This document shows positions 6 to 9,215 of a stretch of 64,000 nt of DNA, piece after piece. Location: positions 2,771 through 66,770 of IMG/VR virus record IMGVR_UViG_3300026430_000265; one strand, given 5' to 3'. The position numbers were made by a program, and so were the translations under genes. The stretch comes from a virus. Position 1 is the stretch's first letter. Each line of letters begins with the position of its first letter. The notes under the pieces were generated by a model that was not told the origin of the DNA, ran no database searches, and saw nothing but the letters and a program-made list of their open reading frames with translations.

Positions 6-1454
6 GTGCCTGCTGACTGGGTACTCGTTCGTGGTTATGACGAATGCCCACGTTGGGCGCCACCCAAGTCGTCTGGTGGGATCAATAGCACGCTGTACCG
101 TGCGCCTTCCAAGCTGGTAATGAGCACTATCAACTACACAGGCGATGGTACCGAGGCACGCTATGCCCTTGGCGATCTGGAAATCGAGAACGTCAACTAC
201 CTGCAGCCAGCGCTTGGTGGTGTAACCCAGCACCGTGATGCGTTTGATATGAGCGGCAACGAGATTGAGTTTGTGGAGGCAATTGCCGCCCAGATTCCAA
301 TTGACCTGCGCCTGTTCACACGTATCCCGTCGAACGGCAGCCGCATGTTGATCAAGGTTGACCATGTGGTGGGTGATGGCAGCACGCAGAACTTCAAGAT
401 CAGCCAGCCCGTGCAAGACGCCAACTACATCAAGGCGTACATTCGCGGTATCCGGCAGATGCTCACCACGTTCACCTACGATGCCACAACGCAGGAGGTC
501 AAGTTTGTAGCACCGATCCCTGCTGGCGTTGACGTGGAGTTGCGTAGCTTCCGTATCGAAGACTTCGAGGGTTACAGCACCACCATCTCGACCATCGCCA
601 CGATCACCAGTGACGACACGTACTTCCTCGAACTGCCGTTCACTCCGCAGTCGGTTGAGTACATCGAGGTATCCCAGTCTGGTGCGCACATCCATGGCAA
701 CCAGTACACTCTGGTAGACAACAAGGTGATCTTCACTGGGCCGATTCGCAAAGGCCTGGGTGTCGAGATTACCCTGTACGACAACGCGCCAGCACAAGGC
801 AGTAGCAATACCAACCTTGCTGGTGTGGTCATTGATGCAGTGCTTACTGGTCGTACCTTGAAGCTCCTGCGTCATGGTGCCAAGCCGATTGTCCTGCCTG
901 TGCCTGGCGTATCGCTGATCGCTGGCTCGGGTATCCGTATCAGTGGTTCGCACCCTGTGTACCGGATCGAATCGACCATCAGTGAGCAACTGACTGATGC
1001 CGAGGCCAACTTCAAGTTCACGGATACTCGGAACCAGAAGGACGCCCAAGAGATTCTGTTCACGCACCGTGTCAATCTCTCCAGTGACGTGATGGTGACT
1101 GTCCACGCTGACTTCCAAGCAGCACTCGGCCCTGGCTTCGTCACGGAAGAAGGCTTGGAGATCATGGAGTACGTGGTTGGCTTCCGTTCGTCCAAGAGTC
1201 AGGAGCCTGATTACGGTCGCCAGATTGCAGGTACTGGTACTGCTGGCTTCTCGTCCCTTGGTGGCGACAAGAACGAACGTGCCTACTCCAACGCCTCGCT
1301 CACTCAGGTCTACGATATTGTGACCAAGAACCACCCAGCGGGCTACATCGACGTTGTGGTGAAGATGCGGGTGAAGAACGCGAACGTGAGCCAGTACGGT
1401 TCGTTCCTGAACGTCAACGTCAACATCATCGGTACGCCGAAGATTGCCAAATAG
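6..1454 (+). CDS. Virion structural protein (baseplate/fibre-associated); probably 5'-truncated by the window edge
   Basis: 482-aa ORF from GTG at base 6 with no room for an RBS; repeated GDG-T-x-F/Y beta-rich modules typical of phage baseplate/fibre proteins; first gene of the structural block. Confidence 0.6.
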   Translation: MPADWVLVRGYDECPRWAPPKSSGGINSTLYRAPSKLVMSTINYTGDGTEARYALGDLEIENVNYLQPALGGVTQHRDAFDMSGNEIEFVEAIAAQIPIDLRLFTRIPSNGSRMLIKVDHVVGDGSTQNFKISQPVQDANYIKAYIRGIRQMLTTFTYDATTQEVKFVAPIPAGVDVELRSFRIEDFEGYSTTISTIATITSDDTYFLELPFTPQSVEYIEVSQSGAHIHGNQYTLVDNKVIFTGPIRKGLGVEITLYDNAPAQGSSNTNLAGVVIDAVLTGRTLKLLRHGAKPIVLPVPGVSLIAGSGIRISGSHPVYRIESTISEQLTDAEANFKFTDTRNQKDAQEILFTHRVNLSSDVMVTVHADFQAALGPGFVTEEGLEIMEYVVGFRSSKSQEPDYGRQIAGTGTAGFSSLGGDKNERAYSNASLTQVYDIVTKNHPAGYIDVVVKMRVKNANVSQYGSFLNVNVNIIGTPKIAK

Positions 1455-1461
1455 GTGAGCC

Positions 1462-1923
1462 ATGATCTGCTACGTCATGCCCGATGGGAGTTATGGACGC
1501 AGCACACAGCCGCCACACGACGCCATTCCCATTGGTGACGACATATACAGGATGCTGGAGGACAACCCTGGCATGCTGGACATTGAAGTCACCGGTGTGA
1601 ATGTTCGGATCAGCCCATCGCTTATTTCCTACAAGGCAAAGGCGCTGGAGATTATCCGTACCGAAGTGGGCAAGCTGCTGCCGTCTGAGCAGCATCTGAA
1701 CCAACTGCACCGCAGCGTTGCTTGCGAGCAGTCCTGTTTCGATGAGGTCCTTGGCTGGTTAACGGTTGAGGACACGCGCAAGACGTTTGCGCAGCTTAAC
1801 GAACGGCACAACAAGCTGCGATTCATTCAACACGACAGCACCTCCATGGTGGGGCAAGCAACAGCCTGTGAACAGGTTGATACCATACTGGAGGCATTGT
1901 CGCATACACTAGGTGCACTATGA
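1462..1923 (+). CDS. Hypothetical protein, possible tail-fibre assembly chaperone
   Basis: 153 aa; AGGTGAG RBS; short beta N-terminus then helical C-terminus as in fibre-assembly chaperones; ATGA overlap with the next gene. Confidence 0.5.
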   Translation: MICYVMPDGSYGRSTQPPHDAIPIGDDIYRMLEDNPGMLDIEVTGVNVRISPSLISYKAKALEIIRTEVGKLLPSEQHLNQLHRSVACEQSCFDEVLGWLTVEDTRKTFAQLNERHNKLRFIQHDSTSMVGQATACEQVDTILEALSHTLGAL

Positions 1924-3329
1924 GTGTGAAAGGTGTTTCCGACTCTCCACTCCTTGGGAAGTCTATCCTAGGAGACCAATCCCGGGTGCCCATCGGTGCG
2001 CCTGTGATTACAAACCTCAGGGTGAAGAACTCGAAAGAGATTCAGGCCCTGATGACTGGCCAGACATTGACTGAGCCACAACTCAACCAGTTCGAGACGT
2101 TTGGGCAGGATGGCAGGGAAGCCTTCCGCAAAGAGTCCAACAGCATCGACTACCGTGATCGCACGCTGGAGAACGGGCGCCTTATCGAGGAGTGGAGCTA
2201 CGACCCACAAACGGGTTCGCTTGTCCTCGTGCGGAAGAACCAAGAAGAGTACCGCATCTTCAACTTCCTGCGCCAAGACGCGATGGGTCATGGTGCTACA
2301 GGTCCTCGTGGCGATCCGGGTAAAGATGGGAAGAACGGACGTCTCGGTCGTGATGGTGCTCAAGGTGCTACCGGTTGCGAAGGTGAGAAGGGTGATCCGG
2401 GTGAGACTGGTAACCCAGGCGTCGAAGGTAATCCCGGCATCATGGGCTTGCAAGGTCCAGACGGTTGTGAGGGTGCATCGGGCGATCGTGGTGTCGTGGG
2501 TCCACAGGGACGTAACGGGTTTGAAGGCGCTCGTGGCCTCACTGGACCAAGTTGCGATGAAGAGAACACTGGCGCTCAAGGTGCACAAGGTGCCAAGTTC
2601 GGTAAGGGTGTTGCCTTTGGCCTAGCCGCTGCCTCTGATCCAGAAGTCGCAATCATGGGCTTGGACGATGACGGTGTTGATGCAGTTGCGCCAACGTGTG
2701 GCTGGACTGGTAAGCTGTGCGGTGCAACTACTGCGCCAGCAACGCCTGCTCCTGATACATCAGCGCCAGCTAACCCATCGCCTCCACCTACTGCATCTGC
2801 GCGCATCAGCCTGTGTACGAGCTTTGGTAACCAGAGTCCGAAGAGTTCGTGTGGTGGTACCTCGACTGCGTGGTATGTTGCATGGGCCAACTTCGATGCA
2901 GGTGGCGGTGTACTGGGTCTCTCGGGACTTCCACTCGCACGGCAAAACACTGCATGGTGGCCAAACAGTGTCGTCATGTGTGGTACTCTGGCCGCTGGTG
3001 CAGCGTACACCTTCGAGTTGATTACTCCACCGGGCGTTGCCTCCACCTTGTTCCTGAACTGTGCGATCATCAGCCAGACGGACTACCCAGGTGGTACCAC
3101 GCGAGTCACGAAGACACTGGACAAACCCACTGAGGTTCGCCTGCGCTTCCTCAACAACGCAGCGCGCATCCCAACGTGGTGTGCCCTGAAAATCTACAAC
3201 GCCTCCACAGGCGAACTGCTGTACTTCACGGGTAAGAATGCCAAGAACGCCGGCCTCAAAGGTGAGTTTGCCTCATCCAAGACTGACGACAACTGGGCAG
3301 GCAACAGCTCCGTGCAGCAGTACCTATAA
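1920..3329 (+). CDS. Collagen-like fibre protein A with Cys-rich C-terminal beta domain
   Basis: 29 uninterrupted G-X-Y triplets (GATGPRGDP...GLTGPS), Pro/Ala linker, beta-rich C-terminal domain. Confidence 0.8.
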   Translation: MSVKGVSDSPLLGKSILGDQSRVPIGAPVITNLRVKNSKEIQALMTGQTLTEPQLNQFETFGQDGREAFRKESNSIDYRDRTLENGRLIEEWSYDPQTGSLVLVRKNQEEYRIFNFLRQDAMGHGATGPRGDPGKDGKNGRLGRDGAQGATGCEGEKGDPGETGNPGVEGNPGIMGLQGPDGCEGASGDRGVVGPQGRNGFEGARGLTGPSCDEENTGAQGAQGAKFGKGVAFGLAAASDPEVAIMGLDDDGVDAVAPTCGWTGKLCGATTAPATPAPDTSAPANPSPPPTASARISLCTSFGNQSPKSSCGGTSTAWYVAWANFDAGGGVLGLSGLPLARQNTAWWPNSVVMCGTLAAGAAYTFELITPPGVASTLFLNCAIISQTDYPGGTTRVTKTLDKPTEVRLRFLNNAARIPTWCALKIYNASTGELLYFTGKNAKNAGLKGEFASSKTDDNWAGNSSVQQYL

Positions 3330-3338
3330 GGATTCAAC

Positions 3339-4034
3339 ATGACAGGCTTGACTCGAATCCACAGTTCGTTGATCTATGCCCCGGGTGAATCAGACCAGAC
3401 CGAAGTAGTGGTCAGGGACGAACACCTTGAGGCCAGTGCGCCGCTTGAGTCGGATATCAGTGAAGTCTCCAGCGGCTACTACGATGCCCAGCTGGGTATC
3501 CTGACGCTCACCATGAGCAACGGTGATACCGTTCGTATCAATGGCTTTGCCACAGCGGGTAACATCCCTGCTGGTCCCACAGGCCCTCAGGGTTTGCCGG
3601 GTAAAGATGGCCAAGACGGCCGTGATGGTAAGGACGGTGAGAAAGGCGAAGAGGGTTGCCAAGGTCCAGCGGGGCCACAAGGCGCCACTGGTGCTACCGG
3701 CCCTGATGGTCGCGATGGCATGATGGGTCAGCAAGGCGTTCGTGGTTGCCCAGGTCCCAAGGGTGCACCGGGTGAACGCGGACCCACTGGCCCGCAAGGT
3801 CCAATCGGCCCCACTGGTCCAAGAGGTGAGCAAGGTCCTACGGGTAAGCCGGGTGCTCCTGGCCCTGCAGGTACCGTGAATATCATCGTCTCCACTACTG
3901 ACCCTGGTAACGTGGGTGCTGGCTGGCTCTGGGTTAACCCAAGCGCCACTGAAACTCCTGCATCGGGTGGCGGCGGTGGCGGCACTGTAACGCCTCCTGC
4001 GACTGACCCACCCATCGGCACTCCATGGCCATAA
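3339..4034 (+). CDS. Collagen-like fibre protein B
   Basis: About 34 G-X-Y triplets; shared YD-x3-G-x-L-x-L..I-x-GF pre-collagen motif; C-terminal IIVSTTDP...WLWVNP motif. Confidence 0.85.
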
Positions 4035-4046
4035 CAAGGTGACCTT

Positions 4047-4562
4047 ATGCTGACTCGCGTTCCACTCAAATTGCTCGATGCCAAAGGTCGCTCTGGTAGT
4101 GACGTGCGCTTCGATGGTAACAACGTCGTGGTGGAAGAGGATAGCCTCAACCAGAACGACTACGGCATCACGGCTGGTAACTACGACGCCACCTCTGGTA
4201 CCCTGACGCTCGTCCTGCGCAATGGTGAAAGCCTCCAGCTCTCTGGGTTCACCACTGTCAGCGACATGGGCGTTGGCCAAGCAGGCCCCACTGGCCCAGC
4301 AGGTCAAGATGGCCGTGATGGTCTCAATGGTACTGACGGTGAGAAGGGTGCCACTGGTTGCCAAGGCCCAGCTGGCCCTCCCGGTCGTCAAGGCCCTCGC
4401 GGCGAACAAGGCAACCCAGGGGCTACAGGCCCTAACGGTGCAACTGGACCCACTGGCCCTGATGGCAAGGATGGCGTCGTTCAAATCTGGATTCAGACCG
4501 CTGACCCAGTGCTGGATGCTGCCGTCCACGTTGTCCCTGGGGCACTGTGGGTCAAGCCATAA
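4047..4562 (+). CDS. Collagen-like fibre protein C
   Basis: About 23 G-X-Y triplets; same pre-collagen motif; ends IWIQTADP...ALWVKP. Confidence 0.85.
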
Positions 4563-4577
4563 GTTGGAGTTCTACCA

Positions 4578-7500
4578 ATGAGTAGACTAAGAATCAGGAA
4601 TGCGGCCAACACCAAGTGGTTGGATATCTGCCAGAGTGAATGGCGGGTGCGCAATCCAAGCAACACAGGCTGGACACGCATCACTCCTGCGCAGGGCATG
4701 AAGGTTCGCCATGGTGCTGAGACCTATTGGCTGGACATTGATTGCAAGGCGGAAGGCCTAGCCAGTTGTGACACTGAGGATGAGTACGGCGGCACACCGG
4801 ACGGTAAGGGTAGCAATGGTTCAGGTGGTGGTAACGGCTCCGGCGGTGGAACAGGTGGCAACGGAGGCAACGGAGGGGCGGGCGGTAACGGCACGGACCC
4901 TGGGTCTGGGTCGGGCGGAATAGGAGGCGGTTTGAACGGTCCTGGCAGCCCTTGGTACAATAATGGGGATAAAGGATCCGGCCAAGGCGGCTCTGGATGG
5001 CAGGAAGGAGCACCATATCCAGGTGGCTATGATCTGCCAGATAGCGATGGGGATGGAGCGGGCGACAAGGGCTCGTGTATCTACCGTCCCGGACTGGGTG
5101 TCTGTGAGGAGAAGGGTGTCCTCATTATCCGTCCGGACATGGACTGCGGTACGAAGATCGCCGGTGGGTTTGATTGCCCATTCGAGTGCCCAAGTGCTAT
5201 CAATGGTAGCGGTAAGGGTATCTGGGAGTTCTACCTGAACATGGGCAAGGAAGGCGGTGCGGTGCGTATGCCATGGATGGCGAACGCTGGTGCTGTTAGT
5301 GTCGATGTGTACTACCGCGGCAAGGTCATTGCGAGCACTGGTGGGCAGCGTACTGGCAAAGGCGTATTGCAGTTCGTGTTCACGCCGGTGAATAACGACC
5401 CACTGGTGTTTGTCCGGGTTAGGGCTACTAAGGCCAGCAAGTGGACGCTCCAGATGAAGTGCGTGGGTGACGACGATACGGACGGTGAAATCACTGATCC
5501 ACGTCCATGCCACGGTACGTTCGAGGTGAAGAAAGAAGGCGGGTTGGGAACGTTTGAGTTCTATCACGCCATGGGTGATAAGGCTGGCTTGGTAGACATA
5601 CACTACCAGATGTGGAACCAGCCGGATAAGCTCGAAGTATTCCAAGACGGACGGTTGCTCAAGTCTACTGGCGGATACGTGGCAGGCGAAGGCCATGTGA
5701 AGTTTGACTATTCGCCTACCGAGTCGCAGCTTGTCATGGTGCGCATCACTGCACGGGACCCTGGGACCTCGTGGATTTACCTGATCACCTGTCCGGGCGA
5801 GAAGGGTAGTGAAGATGATCCACGGCCGTGTTCGGATCAGAGCGCCGTGACGTCTGGTGGTGCTGGTGTTACTGACACCTATGTCGATATGGGTCCGAAT
5901 GCTGGTAAGGTGGGTGTGCGTTACCAGATGTACAACATCCCCGATAAGCTGGACGTCTATCAAGGCGGTACGTTGGTTGCGACGACTGGTGGGCCTGTTA
6001 CTGGCGATCACTGGCTGTACTTCAACTACAACCCCGCTGGTGGTCAGAAGATCCAGATTCGGGTAACTGGCAGCGGTAAGACCTCGTGGTCGTTCCTGCA
6101 TACGTGCCCGGGTGATGAGGATCCAAACATCAGCATCGACGATCCGATTGTCAAGGAAGGCAAGGAGGGTGAGACTGCCCAACTCTGCTGGACCGTGACT
6201 ATGGATAAGCCGCAGTCCATGCCTGTGACTGTCGATTACCAATCTGGTGGCGGTACTGCTAAGCCCTTCATCTGCCAAGGCCGGATTTTGGCGAACGACG
6301 AGTTCAACAACCCCTTTATCGCAGTCGCGGACTGTGGCGTTGGTCGTGCAGCATTCGATGGCGGGTTCCCCAAGTTCTACAACAATGCCTACAGGGCGCC
6401 GCAGGATGCACCTACTGGTCAGGCCGTATTCGACTCGTGGTGGCGGACGGCAGGCGACGAGTATTACTCGGACCCTACCACAATCCCTGCTGCATCGCAA
6501 GCTACTGCATGGCGGTTGTCGAGCGGGAACATCCAGTCGACCACGAACAGTTCCAAGATGATTTCGTTCTGTTCGCCGCTGTCGTACATGAGCTACACGT
6601 TTGAGGCCACGCTGTCGTCTGGCGAGGCGGATGACGATATGATCGGCTTGGTAGCTGCGTTCGCCCGTGTTGGTGCTGACAACTACCATCTGGTTGCATC
6701 GCGTGTACCCGGTGGCATGGGAGGTTATGGTAGTGGTAACTTCAATCTGACGCTGCTTGTCAACGGTGTACCTACTAAGGTGCTCGCGACGAAGACTTCT
6801 GGCGGCAACGGGAACTGGAATGGTCGTGGGCAGACCCGTGTGCGGGTTGAGCGTGACTGCAACATCATCACGATCTACTGCTCACCCTTTGGTTCGGTTG
6901 CACTGGACTCTGGCACCAAGATCGAAGTGGACCTGAGTGCAGATGCTGACCTGAGCGCATTCACAGGCCAGACCAGCTGGGGCTTCTGTGCCCAGTCGCA
7001 AGCAAACGCCACGTTCAGCTCCGTGTTCGTGTCCGGCATTGGTCTGCCACCTGCATTCACCTACCTGAAGAACTTGATCCAGTGGACTGCGCGCACCAAC
7101 AATCGCACAGGCAAGGTGTTGATTACCTGCGACAACGCGACTGGTGGGAACTACACGCTCGACAGTCAGCCCAACGGGTTCGGTATCAGCTTGCCGGGTA
7201 CTGTCACGGCTGCTGGCTTCACGCCTGTGATGAAAGACGTGTACGCGTGGAACTCTGTGGGTGCTATCCCACTGGCTGAGCTCCTGACGTATGACACCAT
7301 CATCTTCATGGGTTCGCGGGTGACGGCAACTGGTGTAGCGGCTGAAGGTATCCTGAAGGAGGGTTCGGTAGCCAACTTCGCCGAGTACGCTAAGCGCGGT
7401 GGTGGCCTTGTTGTCATCACTGACCACTACGTCTTCGAGTCTGGTGCCAACCAGTTGGCTAACCTGTTCGGGATGGAGTTCTACGGCTCAGTGGATCGTA

Positions 7501-8228
7501 GTGCTATCAGCGTAGCTGCCATGATTACTGCGTGGGGCGATCACCAAGCGTGGGATGGTCTGCACTGCGAGAAGATTCCTGCAGGCGGTAGTGAAGGTGC
7601 ACTGCGCATCAAGGTTGAGGAGCGTGACTATCAGCCAACATCGGGTACCGTGACGTTCGCACCGGGTGAGACTTCCAAGCAGGTCTGTGTCCCAGTCTTC
7701 GGTAACGACGTGCAGCAACCTGATCGCACCGTGGGCATGACCATCGGCAATGCGTCGAAGGGTAACATCACCAAGTCTGGTGGCTTCGGCACGATCATGG
7801 ATGACGACAGCGCGATCTGCAACCAGAACCCAAGCGAGCAAGTGTTCGAGCGCGCTGGTGGTCCTGATGGCTGCAATCTCCTGCACGTGCAGCCAAACTT
7901 CGATTGCGCTGCTGGCAACGTCATGTACCTGATGCAAGCCTTCATCCCGTTCACGTACAGCGGCTCGCACGTTATCACCGTTATCTCGGACGATGACTAT
8001 GAGTTGTACATTGACTGTAAGAAGGTGGGCTCTGGTCCAATTGGCGTGGCAACACTCACTGTGGATGTACGCGCGGGGACTCGCAACGTGATCCTGCGAT
8101 ACAAGAACATCCCGAACTGTACGCCTGGCTATGCTGGATTCAGCGTGCGCTACAACAACCAAGTCCAGTACCTGACCAAAGCAGCAGATTGGAAAGGTCA
8201 AGCCAACAGCATTGGGGAGATCGGATAA
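4578..8228 (+). CDS. Large multi-domain virion adhesin/fibre: triple W-repeat N-terminus, Gly-rich linker, three tandem beta-sandwich repeats, split Calx-beta with nested inserts, PA14-like C-terminal domain
   Basis: 1216 aa; three ~100-aa repeats (PDKL-x-V-Y/F-Q-x-G...STGG); Calx-beta halves ISIDDPIVKEG..VTVDYQSGGGTA and DYQPTSGTVTFAPGETSKQV..GTIMDDD; C-terminal SDDDYELYIDC. Confidence 0.75.
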   Translation: MSRLRIRNAANTKWLDICQSEWRVRNPSNTGWTRITPAQGMKVRHGAETYWLDIDCKAEGLASCDTEDEYGGTPDGKGSNGSGGGNGSGGGTGGNGGNGGAGGNGTDPGSGSGGIGGGLNGPGSPWYNNGDKGSGQGGSGWQEGAPYPGGYDLPDSDGDGAGDKGSCIYRPGLGVCEEKGVLIIRPDMDCGTKIAGGFDCPFECPSAINGSGKGIWEFYLNMGKEGGAVRMPWMANAGAVSVDVYYRGKVIASTGGQRTGKGVLQFVFTPVNNDPLVFVRVRATKASKWTLQMKCVGDDDTDGEITDPRPCHGTFEVKKEGGLGTFEFYHAMGDKAGLVDIHYQMWNQPDKLEVFQDGRLLKSTGGYVAGEGHVKFDYSPTESQLVMVRITARDPGTSWIYLITCPGEKGSEDDPRPCSDQSAVTSGGAGVTDTYVDMGPNAGKVGVRYQMYNIPDKLDVYQGGTLVATTGGPVTGDHWLYFNYNPAGGQKIQIRVTGSGKTSWSFLHTCPGDEDPNISIDDPIVKEGKEGETAQLCWTVTMDKPQSMPVTVDYQSGGGTAKPFICQGRILANDEFNNPFIAVADCGVGRAAFDGGFPKFYNNAYRAPQDAPTGQAVFDSWWRTAGDEYYSDPTTIPAASQATAWRLSSGNIQSTTNSSKMISFCSPLSYMSYTFEATLSSGEADDDMIGLVAAFARVGADNYHLVASRVPGGMGGYGSGNFNLTLLVNGVPTKVLATKTSGGNGNWNGRGQTRVRVERDCNIITIYCSPFGSVALDSGTKIEVDLSADADLSAFTGQTSWGFCAQSQANATFSSVFVSGIGLPPAFTYLKNLIQWTARTNNRTGKVLITCDNATGGNYTLDSQPNGFGISLPGTVTAAGFTPVMKDVYAWNSVGAIPLAELLTYDTIIFMGSRVTATGVAAEGILKEGSVANFAEYAKRGGGLVVITDHYVFESGANQLANLFGMEFYGSVDRSAISVAAMITAWGDHQAWDGLHCEKIPAGGSEGALRIKVEERDYQPTSGTVTFAPGETSKQVCVPVFGNDVQQPDRTVGMTIGNASKGNITKSGGFGTIMDDDSAICNQNPSEQVFERAGGPDGCNLLHVQPNFDCAAGNVMYLMQAFIPFTYSGSHVITVISDDDYELYIDCKKVGSGPIGVATLTVDVRAGTRNVILRYKNIPNCTPGYAGFSVRYNNQVQYLTKAADWKGQANSIGEIG

Positions 8229-8398
8229 TGGCAGTCAGACTCCGTGTTCGACAGTCCGTTAGCGACCCGTGGATTCAAAACTTTGACAAGCTGGGTTGGA
8301 AAGTCAGGGCGAGCGACAACAAGTCGTGGATTCAGATGAACCCGCTCAACACCAAGGTGCGCTCCTCGGACAACACCAAATGGCTCAACGTGAAGTGA
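8228..8398 (+). CDS. 56-aa protein homologous to the N-terminal module of the 1216-aa adhesin
   Basis: TAATG overlap with the upstream stop; three (L/W/T)(R/K)VR-x5-6-W repeats matching those at 4578-4750. Confidence 0.75.
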   Translation: MAVRLRVRQSVSDPWIQNFDKLGWKVRASDNKSWIQMNPLNTKVRSSDNTKWLNVK

Positions 8399-8405
8399 GA
8401 AGACT

Positions 8406-9215
8406 ATGACTGGTAGACTGACCAGGGTGCCATTGCCGCTGCTCGATCCGGGCACGGGTGATACCAACGACATTGTGAAGTTCAACGGCAATGAGCTGGA
8501 GCTTCAGGATGACGAGAATCTGAACGGTGATACCACAATCGTCTCCGGTGATTATGACTCGGAGACGGGCTCACTCGTTCTCAACCGCGCGGATCGCAGT
8601 ACGCTGCTGATCCGTGGCTTCCTTACAACGCAGTCGGTGGGAGTGGGGCCTACGGGTCCCACTGGCCCTCAAGGCAAACCCGGCTCGAACGGTCGTAACG
8701 GTAAAGACGGCCGTGTCGGCGATCAGGGTTGCGTTGGCCCCAAAGGTGATCCGGGTCCTCAGGGTGCAACCGGTCCTGCAGGTTCGAGTGGTGGTCCCGG
8801 TGTTCAGGGCGCTACTGGCCCGACGGGTCCCACCGGTCCGACTGGCCCAGCAGGGCAAGATGGTAAGACGCCAACGTTCGGCGTGGGTGAAGTCGATGCC
8901 TACGAGCGATTCGACAACCTCAGCTTGAAGTGCTGGGGCCGCTTCACGTCGACCGAGGCTGCGCTTTTCCAGCGCGTGATCTTCCCAGAGTCGTTCATCA
9001 CCGACAAGCCTCGGACAATGCACATCCAGTTCATTAACCCGAAGAGCAACGTCAAGAACGCTGTGCGGATTGATCGGGTGAACAAGGGTAACGCAGAGCT
9101 TTCCGTGGACACCTCGCTGCTTGCACAAGAGAGCGATGGTGCTGGCGGGACTCAACCTGTGGCTGCCACCGGCTGGGACTTCTACTACTTCGTCATTGGC
9201 AGCGACGCTCCTTAA
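8406..9215 (+). CDS. Collagen-like fibre protein D with C-terminal globular tip domain
   Basis: About 25 G-X-Y triplets; N-terminus LTRVPLPLLD resembles gene 4047 ([10 protein letters not shown]); C-terminal CWGRF..IFPESF..FYYFVIG resembles fibre tip domains. Confidence 0.8.
   Translation: MTGRLTRVPLPLLDPGTGDTNDIVKFNGNELELQDDENLNGDTTIVSGDYDSETGSLVLNRADRSTLLIRGFLTTQSVGVGPTGPTGPQGKPGSNGRNGKDGRVGDQGCVGPKGDPGPQGATGPAGSSGGPGVQGATGPTGPTGPTGPAGQDGKTPTFGVGEVDAYERFDNLSLKCWGRFTSTEAALFQRVIFPESFITDKPRTMHIQFINPKSNVKNAVRIDRVNKGNAELSVDTSLLAQESDGAGGTQPVAATGWDFYYFVIGSDAP

Follow-up and report, generated by a model that had tools for sequence, protein, structure and literature searches.

The gene and its nested domains

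The stretch of DNA analysed here (the window) comprises 64,000 nucleotides (nt) of a 137.7-kb virus record in IMG/VR (IMGVR_UViG_3300026430_000265, positions 2,771 to 66,770), and the subject of this analysis is a gene on its + strand (4578..8228) that is open throughout and encodes a protein of 1216 amino acids (aa), probably a tail fibre or adhesin. The gene was recognised from its open reading frame (ORF), from its orthology to gp248 (PaBG_00248, 'putative tail fiber protein') of the Pseudomonas jumbo phage PaBG, genus Baikalvirus, and from its place in a syntenic tail-fibre cluster. The PaBG counterpart sits among a run of genes annotated as tail fibre genes and the gene order is the same as in the window. 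Identity to the PaBG protein is 57% over aa 500-1090, and 64% across 94% of the whole protein by tblastn. A megablast search of the gene against phages gave no match and neither did a search of NCBIfam.

The central part of the protein has a nested architecture, in which a Calx-beta domain is interrupted by an alpha/beta domain and the alpha/beta domain is in turn interrupted by a lectin-like domain, all on the + strand. The N-terminal (N) half of the Calx-beta domain (aa 512-563, 6111..6266) contains strands A, A', B and C, runs into the C-D loop (GGGTA-KP) and was delimited with a hidden Markov model (HMM), a structural model and superposition. It is followed by part A of the alpha/beta domain (aa 564-604, 6267..6389), which consists of three beta strands and the motif DGGFPKFYN and was recognised from invariant columns and the structural model. 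Then comes a ConA-like beta-sandwich of the L-type lectin or LamG-like kind (aa 605-824, 6390..7049), identified by a fold search with the model and lying inside the alpha/beta domain, whose main part (aa 825-1015, 7050..7622) follows with helix alpha0 and a flavodoxin-like beta-alpha core carrying ITDH and GGSE, as indicated by phrog_11065 and the model. The C-terminal (C) half of the Calx-beta domain (aa 1016-1079, 7623..7814) resumes with the R-DY of the C-D loop and continues through strands D-G to a terminal DDD; the evidence here is Pfam PF03160 together with the HMM and the model. This order of nesting had been put forward in an original prediction made from the sequence alone, and it is borne out by the model and fold search and by natural homologues at each level. 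The strings quoted in that prediction are present, NISIDD beginning at nt 6126 (aa 517) and RDYQ at nt 7623 (aa 1016), the internal boundaries between part A, the lectin and the resumed alpha/beta domain hold, and the second half does end with MDDD at aa 1077 (nt 7808). The insert, put at about 450 aa, measures 452 aa (aa 564-1015). The end of the first half, placed at 6266, needed some adjustment, in that GGGTA stops at aa 561 (nt 6260) and the interval takes in two extra loop residues, K-P.

One Calx-beta domain in two halves

Detection of the Calx-beta domain by Pfam was confined to the C half, which when scanned alone (aa 1010-1085) scored 27.6 bits against a cut-off of 27, over positions 53-101 of the 119 in PF03160. 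In a scan of the whole protein 22 bits were obtained, from the C half only, and the C half also matched the first Calx-beta domain (CBD1) of NCX1 in sequence. The N half had no Pfam match. Both halves were then compared by phmmer (independent E-value below 1e-3) with the Calx-beta repeats of 176 proteins from outside the PaBG-like family, obtained in a whole-library representative search that was dominated by giant multi-Calx-beta proteins. For the N half there were 857 matching repeats, spread over 140 cellular proteins among the 176, and for the C half 2418. The start of the C-half match fell between -2 and +8 residues from the projected end of the N-half match in 94% of 853 cases, and the commonest offset was 1-3 residues after it. 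The resemblance of the N half is not due to chance, because it extends to many bona fide repeats and adjoins the C-half matches.

A Calx-beta HMM was built from 400 repeats that had been located through their C halves alone, with the upstream 58 residues taken blind. The native protein matches this home-built model at positions 18-66 with aa 513-562 and at positions 68-132 with aa 1015-1079, and the rejoined halves, which were scored on it and not on the Pfam profile, came out as one domain, at 121.2 bits and with a gap of a single residue where they meet. Scored separately, the C half gave 71.7 bits and the N half 42.4, whereas controls in which a shuffled N half was joined to the C half had a mean of 72.2 bits and a maximum of 77.1. 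The C-D loop motif GTA-x-x-G-x-DY is not contiguous in the protein and reads GGGTA-KP-(452 aa)-R-DY.

An AlphaFold2 model of aa 505-1085, made with a 35-sequence alignment, had a mean predicted local distance difference test (pLDDT) score of 92.1 and a predicted template modelling (pTM) score of 0.85. As had been anticipated, both Calx-beta halves close into one sandwich in this predicted model; it has the complete set of seven strands, those of the N half at model residues 13-52, and can be superposed on solved Calx-beta domains. The break lies in the C-D loop, after strand C (aa 550-556) and before strand D (aa 1022-1027), and both host domains fold around their guests through linkers of only 1-5 residues. 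The closest solved structure was NCX1 CBD1 (3gin_A), with Z 14.9, a root-mean-square deviation (rmsd) of 1.6 Å over 110 of 116 residues and 28% identity, the match running over model range 10..574 and thus through both halves. Other solved domains that matched both halves were CALX CBD1 (3ead_A, Z 14.2) and integrin beta4 (3fq4_A, Z 13.6), and overall the superpositions gave Z 13.6-14.9, rmsd 1.6-1.7 Å over 105-110 residues and 22-28% identity.

The domain therefore has the same fold as the established members of the family (PF03160; NCX1 CBD1 3gin/3us9, CALX CBD1 3ead, integrin beta4 3fq4), with the signature elements flanking the break, and differs from them in that its C-D loop is opened by an insert of 452 residues, which makes it roughly four times as large as the host domain itself. 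Of the Ca2+-site elements, as judged by sequence, the protein has the terminal DDD, and part of its E-F loop is non-acidic, the acidic cluster reading GNDVQQPD here as opposed to DDDIFEED in the aligned stretch of NCX1 CBD1. It is highly improbable that the two segments derive from separate domains that have each degenerated and that the closed sandwich is an artefact of AlphaFold. That view can draw on the detection of the C half only by Pfam and on the closure being seen in a predicted, not a solved, structure, but it is countered by the exactly complementary HMM positions of the halves (18-66 and 68-132), by the 1.6 Å fit over 110 of 116 residues and by the occurrence of the same halves directly joined in six natural orthologue clusters that have no insert. 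Residues 512-563 and 1016-1079 are confirmed as complementary halves of one Calx-beta domain of ~115 residues.

The nested lectin

The innermost domain occupies model residues 101-320 (aa 605-824) and was found to be a ConA-like sandwich by structural search of the model, in agreement with the ConA/lectin-like domain that had been read from the sequence. It interrupts the alpha/beta domain directly after DGGFPKFYN. The highest score was with the C-terminal L-lectin domain of thrombospondin (2rhp_A, Z 17.2, 186 residues), followed by the carbohydrate-binding module CBM66 (4b1m_A, Z 16.3, 158 of 165 residues), a number of DUF1080 proteins and legume lectins (Z 12-15) and two receptor-binding domains of mycobacteriophages (8zdo_a and 9n6a_A, Z 12-13). 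Foldseek also found legume lectins, with E ~1e-6 and a probability of 1.00. The domain thus shares its beta-sandwich with known ConA-like lectins (2rhp, 1ux6, 4b1m, DUF1080, legume, 8zdo_a and 9n6a_A) at Z 12-17, although identity to them is 6-14% and here the lectin is an insert within another inserted domain. By sequence only phage-fibre PHROGs match it, phrog_33406 ('tail fiber protein') with E 4e-18, and no Pfam match to the named lectin families (Laminin_G_3, Lectin_leg-like and DUF1080) was obtained from aa 640-825 at E up to 10.

The alpha/beta domain

The alpha/beta domain was studied in its interrupted form and also in an uninterrupted homologue. In the model of the window protein part A contains strands at 65-90 and a helix at 93-96, the DGGFPKFYN motif being near-invariant, and in 54 homologues part A is contiguous with the main part. 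The main part is matched by phrog_11065 ('virion structural protein'). When IMG/VR was scanned for the two best-conserved motifs, DGGFPK[FW] and the strand ending in TDH, 75 loci were found, nearly all of them on contigs of 200-540 kb. The uninterrupted domain chosen for modelling, that of L008, aligns with part A of the window protein at 50% identity and is 34% identical over its best tblastn segment; with a 47-sequence alignment its model reached pLDDT 91.3 and pTM 0.90.

The best solved neighbour of this model was a domain of IMPa, the O-glycoprotease of P. aeruginosa (5kdv_A residues 109-356), with Z 11.5 and rmsd 3.6 Å over 177 residues (model range 7..239); Foldseek gave E 3e-5 for the same domain. 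This accessory domain is collinear with the whole alpha/beta domain, part A included, at 11% identity and with no detectable sequence relation, and a search of the IMPa literature found no statement on its role. The next neighbours, at Z 7-8, were S51 peptidases (6nqc_A at Z 7.9, cyanophycinase and peptidase E), ThuA-like proteins (1t0b, Z 7.7), GIFT domains (IFT52, Z 7.6), a GATase1-like protein and STM3548. Scores of Z 7.0-7.7 were obtained across ~145-150 residues with 1t0b, 5fms, 6s7o_G, 3rht and 2gk3, a range (Z<8) that may reflect no more than a common arrangement. Most of the neighbours at Z 7-8 align from model residue ~67 only, with their own first ~165 residues.

The original prediction took the domain to be like class I glutamine amidotransferases (GATases), with the usual C-terminal segment placed first by circular permutation. 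The likeness is at most one of fold (Z 7-8) and does not extend to family membership. The Pfam profile ThuA (PF06283, cut-off 33.4) stayed below its cut-off with the window (14.6 bits), with a lectin-less homologue (P0023, 21.1 bits) and in a genome search (13.5 bits), and its HMM matched three of the 47 family members at E<=0.1, the weak matches spanning the region of strands 3-4. None of the positions in the 47-sequence alignment holds an invariant Cys, so that the Cys-His-Glu triad is missing, and the elbow position is taken by T-D-H. ESM Atlas leads for the domain were TCAF_N, DUF4092 and IFT52_GIFT/ThuA/DUF4350. Together the fold matches, the weak ThuA HMM matches and the Atlas leads make 'GATase1/ThuA/GIFT-like' a fair description at the fold level. 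The flavodoxin-like core (model 67-237) can be superposed at these scores on the class I GATase-like fold (1t0b, the GIFT domains of IFT52 5fms and OST48 6s7o_G, and STM3548 2gk3), whereas part A has no aligned counterpart in those chains and their C-terminal third is unmatched. The circular permutation is not demonstrated by these comparisons: the IMPa domain is collinear including part A, so that relative to this nearest structural neighbour there is no permutation, and the ThuA/GATase-like ranges, which begin at ~67, are compatible with one. A part-A profile found only chance matches to LOV domains in the PDB (E~0.8) and only weak DUF matches in Pfam.

By sequence the domain belongs with phiKZ gp201, PhiPA3 gp235 and a 'virion structural protein' of Ralstonia phage RP12 (phrog_11065), with which it shares DGGFPK(F/W), (I/V)TDH and GGSE; the match to the RP12 protein in BFVD had a TM score of 0.90. 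In the phiKZ gp201 family, by contrast, the domain stands free at the N-terminus with no Calx-beta frame, and the lectin lies a long way downstream of it or, in one clade, is inserted at the same junction. The phiKZ protein itself (PHIKZ201, AF399011.1 209345-210049) is a member of the same alpha/beta family with 33% identity to the RP12 domain and would be a convenient free-standing version of it; a search of the literature on phiKZ gp201 found nothing informative.

Natural forms at each nesting level

With module HMMs 106 proteins were surveyed for their architecture. The complete Calx[alpha/beta[lectin]] arrangement was present in 28 and Calx[alpha/beta] in four. A free alpha/beta[lectin], with the lectin at exactly the same junction, was found in 17 proteins of jumbo phages. 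The free contiguous alpha/beta domain was the commonest form (54 proteins), in 17 cases together with a separate C-terminal lectin, and in the remaining three the alpha/beta domain carried an unrecognised insert of ~185 aa at the same junction. The alpha/beta domain and the lectin therefore occurred together in 62 of the 106, nested in 45 and separate in 17.

Comparison with homologues that have no insert showed that six orthologue clusters join both Calx-beta halves directly. The first of these (P0036, 759 aa) has 67% identity to aa 1-556 of the window protein and 60% to aa 1022-1215, with nothing in between, and when it was used as a query for related loci only insert-bearing ones were found. 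The five further clusters (P0203-P0207) include some on contigs of 125-200 kb. At the junction two clusters (P0205 and P0206) have a canonical GSG-x-AN-x-DY loop, and in the other four (P0036, P0203, P0204 and P0207) the loop is short, lacks DY and resembles a deletion scar. The Calx[alpha/beta] forms (P0023, P0039, L008 and L009) contain the N half, part A, the main part and the C half without a lectin. Every nesting level thus exists naturally, and the inserted cassette is both real and dispensable.

Two further observations concern the junctions and repetition of the nested unit. The ~180-190 aa insert at the junction of part A and the main part in three jumbo-phage proteins (L023, L071 and L076) was not detected by the lectin HMM, and because of it the loop at this point seems to be a general insertion hot spot. 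One lectin-less protein (P0023, 1356 aa, from a Logan assembly) has its Calx[alpha/beta] unit at aa 340-679 and, at aa 755-990, a second and weaker unit of part A, alpha/beta and a Calx-C-like segment, and so a tandem duplication of the nested unit itself may have taken place. This protein found no related loci as a query in IMG/VR.

Domain insertions have been reported in 20% of multidomain proteins, with nesting documented up to six levels, and the insert was smaller than the host in 77% of the surveyed events, with medians of 115 and 199 residues (Protein Sci 2026, PMC13114784). The present architecture is of the same class as the nested A1-B1-C-B2-A2 proteins of that survey and departs from the surveyed insertions in two respects: the insert is four times larger than the host, and a single virus group contains natural forms at all levels of nesting. 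A literature search found no paper describing this nested architecture in a phage fibre. The nested cassette is a real, dispensable and fast-diverging module and not a new principle. Its value is that one group of jumbo phages offers all the stages, from the intact host domain through one insert and an insert within an insert to clean or scarred loss, as well as free or serially arranged guests. This natural series could be used to study how a 115-residue sandwich tolerates a guest of 450 residues and which insertion sites are permitted.

Divergence between close relatives

The closest relative of the gene (L002:2489-6139) has the same length and is ~97% identical outside a diverged tract. The two differ at 3.3% of nucleotides over the frame (range 3.2-4.2%), at 8% over each part of the alpha/beta domain and at 17.9% over the lectin, which accounted for 39 of the 57 nonsynonymous and 43 of the 142 synonymous codon differences. 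The pattern is that of a recombination tract centred on the lectin, and positive selection is not demonstrated by it. Among 22 orthologues the lectin (47%) and the C-terminal domain (48%) had the lowest mean pairwise identity, and the outlier module differed between individual pairs of orthologues; the protein is therefore a mosaic in which head modules have been exchanged. The cassette, and above all the lectin, was shown to be the most diverged part between close relatives.

Order of insertion

All trees were unrooted and were made with a quick LG+G4 setting. In the tree of the frame (everything except the insert) the six forms that lack it are scattered over four positions and starred branches force at least four changes; making these forms monophyletic cost 384 log-likelihood units and was rejected by the approximately unbiased (AU) test (p-AU 3e-39). 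In the tree of the alpha/beta domain all 30 Calx-framed domains are in one starred clade of 32 rows, with a support of 98 in the Shimodaira-Hasegawa-like approximate likelihood ratio test (SH-aLRT). The other two rows (L061 and L063) have long branches and no Calx halves were found in them, and their placement in this clade is unreliable. The lectin-less L008 and L009 branch first within the clade and the free nested forms are in a distant one, while P0023, which has no lectin, lies inside the lectin-bearing clade with weak support. The lectin of the window has 29% identity (maximum 34%) to the C-terminal lectins of phiKZ-like proteins and 17% (maximum 19%) to the free nested lectins, and these sequence identities suggest two independent origins of nested lectins, although a single clade of all nested lectins was not rejected by the AU test (p 0.45).

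Two successive insertions had been envisaged in the original prediction, and this accords with the alpha/beta tree, in which lectin-less forms branch first, but is not proven by it. Alternatively, the Calx-beta domain may have received a pre-formed alpha/beta[lectin] cassette in one step and the Calx[alpha/beta] forms may have lost the lectin later, a course of events that we consider somewhat unlikely. Free modules that carry the lectin at precisely this junction do exist in 17 jumbo-phage proteins, one clade of nested lectins passes the AU test and the position of P0023 inside the lectin-bearing clade would fit such a loss. On the other hand the Calx-framed and the free nested alpha/beta hosts are on opposite sides of a starred branch, the window lectin is nearer to the C-terminal lectins than to the free nested ones, and L008 and L009 are the first to branch. 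Insertion of the alpha/beta domain first and of the lectin second, followed by repeated loss, is the simplest reading.

Proposed function and alternatives

The best explanation for the whole of these findings, and in our judgement a probable one, is that the gene encodes a glycan-recognising tail fibre or adhesin with a nested Calx[alpha/beta[lectin]] architecture. The gene context, the types of fold and the pattern of divergence all point to a role in receptor binding. In such a fibre the Calx-beta domain and the three repeats upstream of it would form a stalk, and the cassette together with the PA14-like C-terminus would be the glycan-recognition head that chooses which cell-surface polysaccharide is bound. 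The variable lectin would supply specificity and the alpha/beta domain a conserved pocket, either ligand-binding or catalytic, beside the point at which the lectin is attached. The head may have evolved from an intact Calx-beta domain by insertion of the alpha/beta domain and then of a lectin like the C-terminal one of the phiKZ-like homologues, after which repeated deletion and recombinational exchange of the cassette would have followed. The cassette, and especially the lectin, is on this account a likely exchangeable specificity element of the PaBG-type fibre, and it links that fibre to an uncharacterised, strongly conserved alpha/beta domain of phiKZ-like virion proteins.

Across the sequences of the 47-sequence alignment, which are ~25-35% identical, about 15 polar residues of the alpha/beta domain are invariant or near-invariant, including D36, K41, Y43, N44, T170-D171-H172, R196, H211 and S227-E228 (L008/model numbering), and a conserved pocket is therefore proposed. 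That these residues form one pocket is suggested by where they lie, namely at strand C-termini. Three points weigh against the fibre head as outlined above. The divergence of the lectin reflects recombination, because so many of its changes are synonymous (43, against 39 nonsynonymous); in the phiKZ-like homologues the alpha/beta domain is at the N-terminus, the usual place of a fibre anchor, which suggests docking and not a distal role; and PaBG gp248 is absent from the 14 proteins of the published virion proteome (PMC7412058).

The conserved residues could also belong to an enzyme. The cassette may possibly be an enzyme module, in which an alpha/beta hydrolase or modifying enzyme acts on the glycans of the host surface and the lectin is its carbohydrate-binding module at the rim of the active site, although we regard this as less than likely. 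Such an enzyme would explain the many polar residues that are invariant or near-invariant in 47 sequences of ~30% identity, the T-D-H that follows a strand at the nucleophile-elbow position of the GATase1/S51 fold and the co-occurrence of alpha/beta domain and lectin in 62 of the 106 surveyed proteins. It would also agree with the S51 peptidases among the structural neighbours (6nqc_A at Z 7.9, cyanophycinase and peptidase E) and with the best match, IMPa, being an enzyme directed at glycoproteins, though the matched domain of IMPa is an accessory one. The elbow position, however, is without an invariant Cys or Ser, there is no significant sequence match to any enzyme family (13-21 bits for ThuA against a cut-off of 33.4) and Z 7-8 falls in the range of a common arrangement. 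GIFT domains and the central domains of GH42 enzymes have the same fold and are non-catalytic, which also counts against an enzyme. A more specific and rather doubtful version of the idea is that the alpha/beta domain represents an undescribed family of virion-borne jumbo-phage enzymes (phiKZ gp201-like, with DGGFPK, TDH and GGSE) acting on surface glycans, in which the loop after DGGFPKFYN would be a natural docking site that has more than once taken up different carbohydrate-binding modules. If this were true the nesting would put a binding module at the rim of an active site.

It is unlikely that the alpha/beta domain is a platform for docking or oligomerisation instead of a ligand pocket, serving as a virion anchor in the phiKZ-like proteins and binding a fibre component such as the neighbouring collagen-like proteins in those of the PaBG type. 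More than 50 homologues do have the domain at their very N-terminus (residues ~40-300) ahead of variable C-terminal parts, homologues are annotated as virion structural proteins, and the gene is flanked by four collagen-like fibre genes. There is also a fold match to a GH42 enzyme (5xb7_A, Z 5.5), and the same fold mediates trimerisation in GH42 enzymes. The invariant residues, however, are mostly charged or polar and appear to sit at strand C-termini, where this fold usually binds its ligand, any docking partner would need to be conserved in PaBG-like, phiKZ-like and Ralstonia jumbo phages alike, and the domain is dispensable in six orthologue clusters.

Other parts of the protein and neighbouring genes

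The remainder of the protein was characterised largely by comparison of sequences. The first ~60 aa are rich in Trp and are followed by a Gly-rich linker of low complexity (aa 1-175 in all, 4578..5102 on the + strand), both read from the sequence. The N-terminus is conserved among homologues, with 67% identity to P0036, and has no Pfam family; the Trp-rich region would serve as a virion anchor. Three tandem repeats of ~100 aa framed by Cys residues (aa ~199-296, 309-406 and 417-511; 5172..6110, +) were recognised from internal alignments at ~29% identity, and lie directly upstream of the Calx-beta domain. They match phrog_26008 with E 2e-115, have no Pfam family and are presumably beta-rich. 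The C-terminal domain (aa 1080-1216, with the stop codon 7815..8228, +) is weakly PA14-like, scoring 17.7 bits against PF07691, below the cut-off of 24 and over only positions 37-81 of the 147 in the profile, and the name of the PaBG orthologue in BFVD/UniProt is 'PA14 domain-containing protein'. A likeness of this domain to a neighbouring collagen-like protein of 469 aa was considered and was unsupported by BLASTP.

Genes with collagen-like Gly-X-Y repeats flank the gene on the same strand, three upstream (1920-3329, 3339-4034 and 4047-4562) and one downstream (8406-9215). The N-terminal regions of the four collagen-like proteins are alike and match 'putative tail fiber protein' genes around PaBG gp248. 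Directly 3' of the gene is a short ORF (8228-8398, +) whose counterpart in PaBG is PaBG_00249, of 56 aa.

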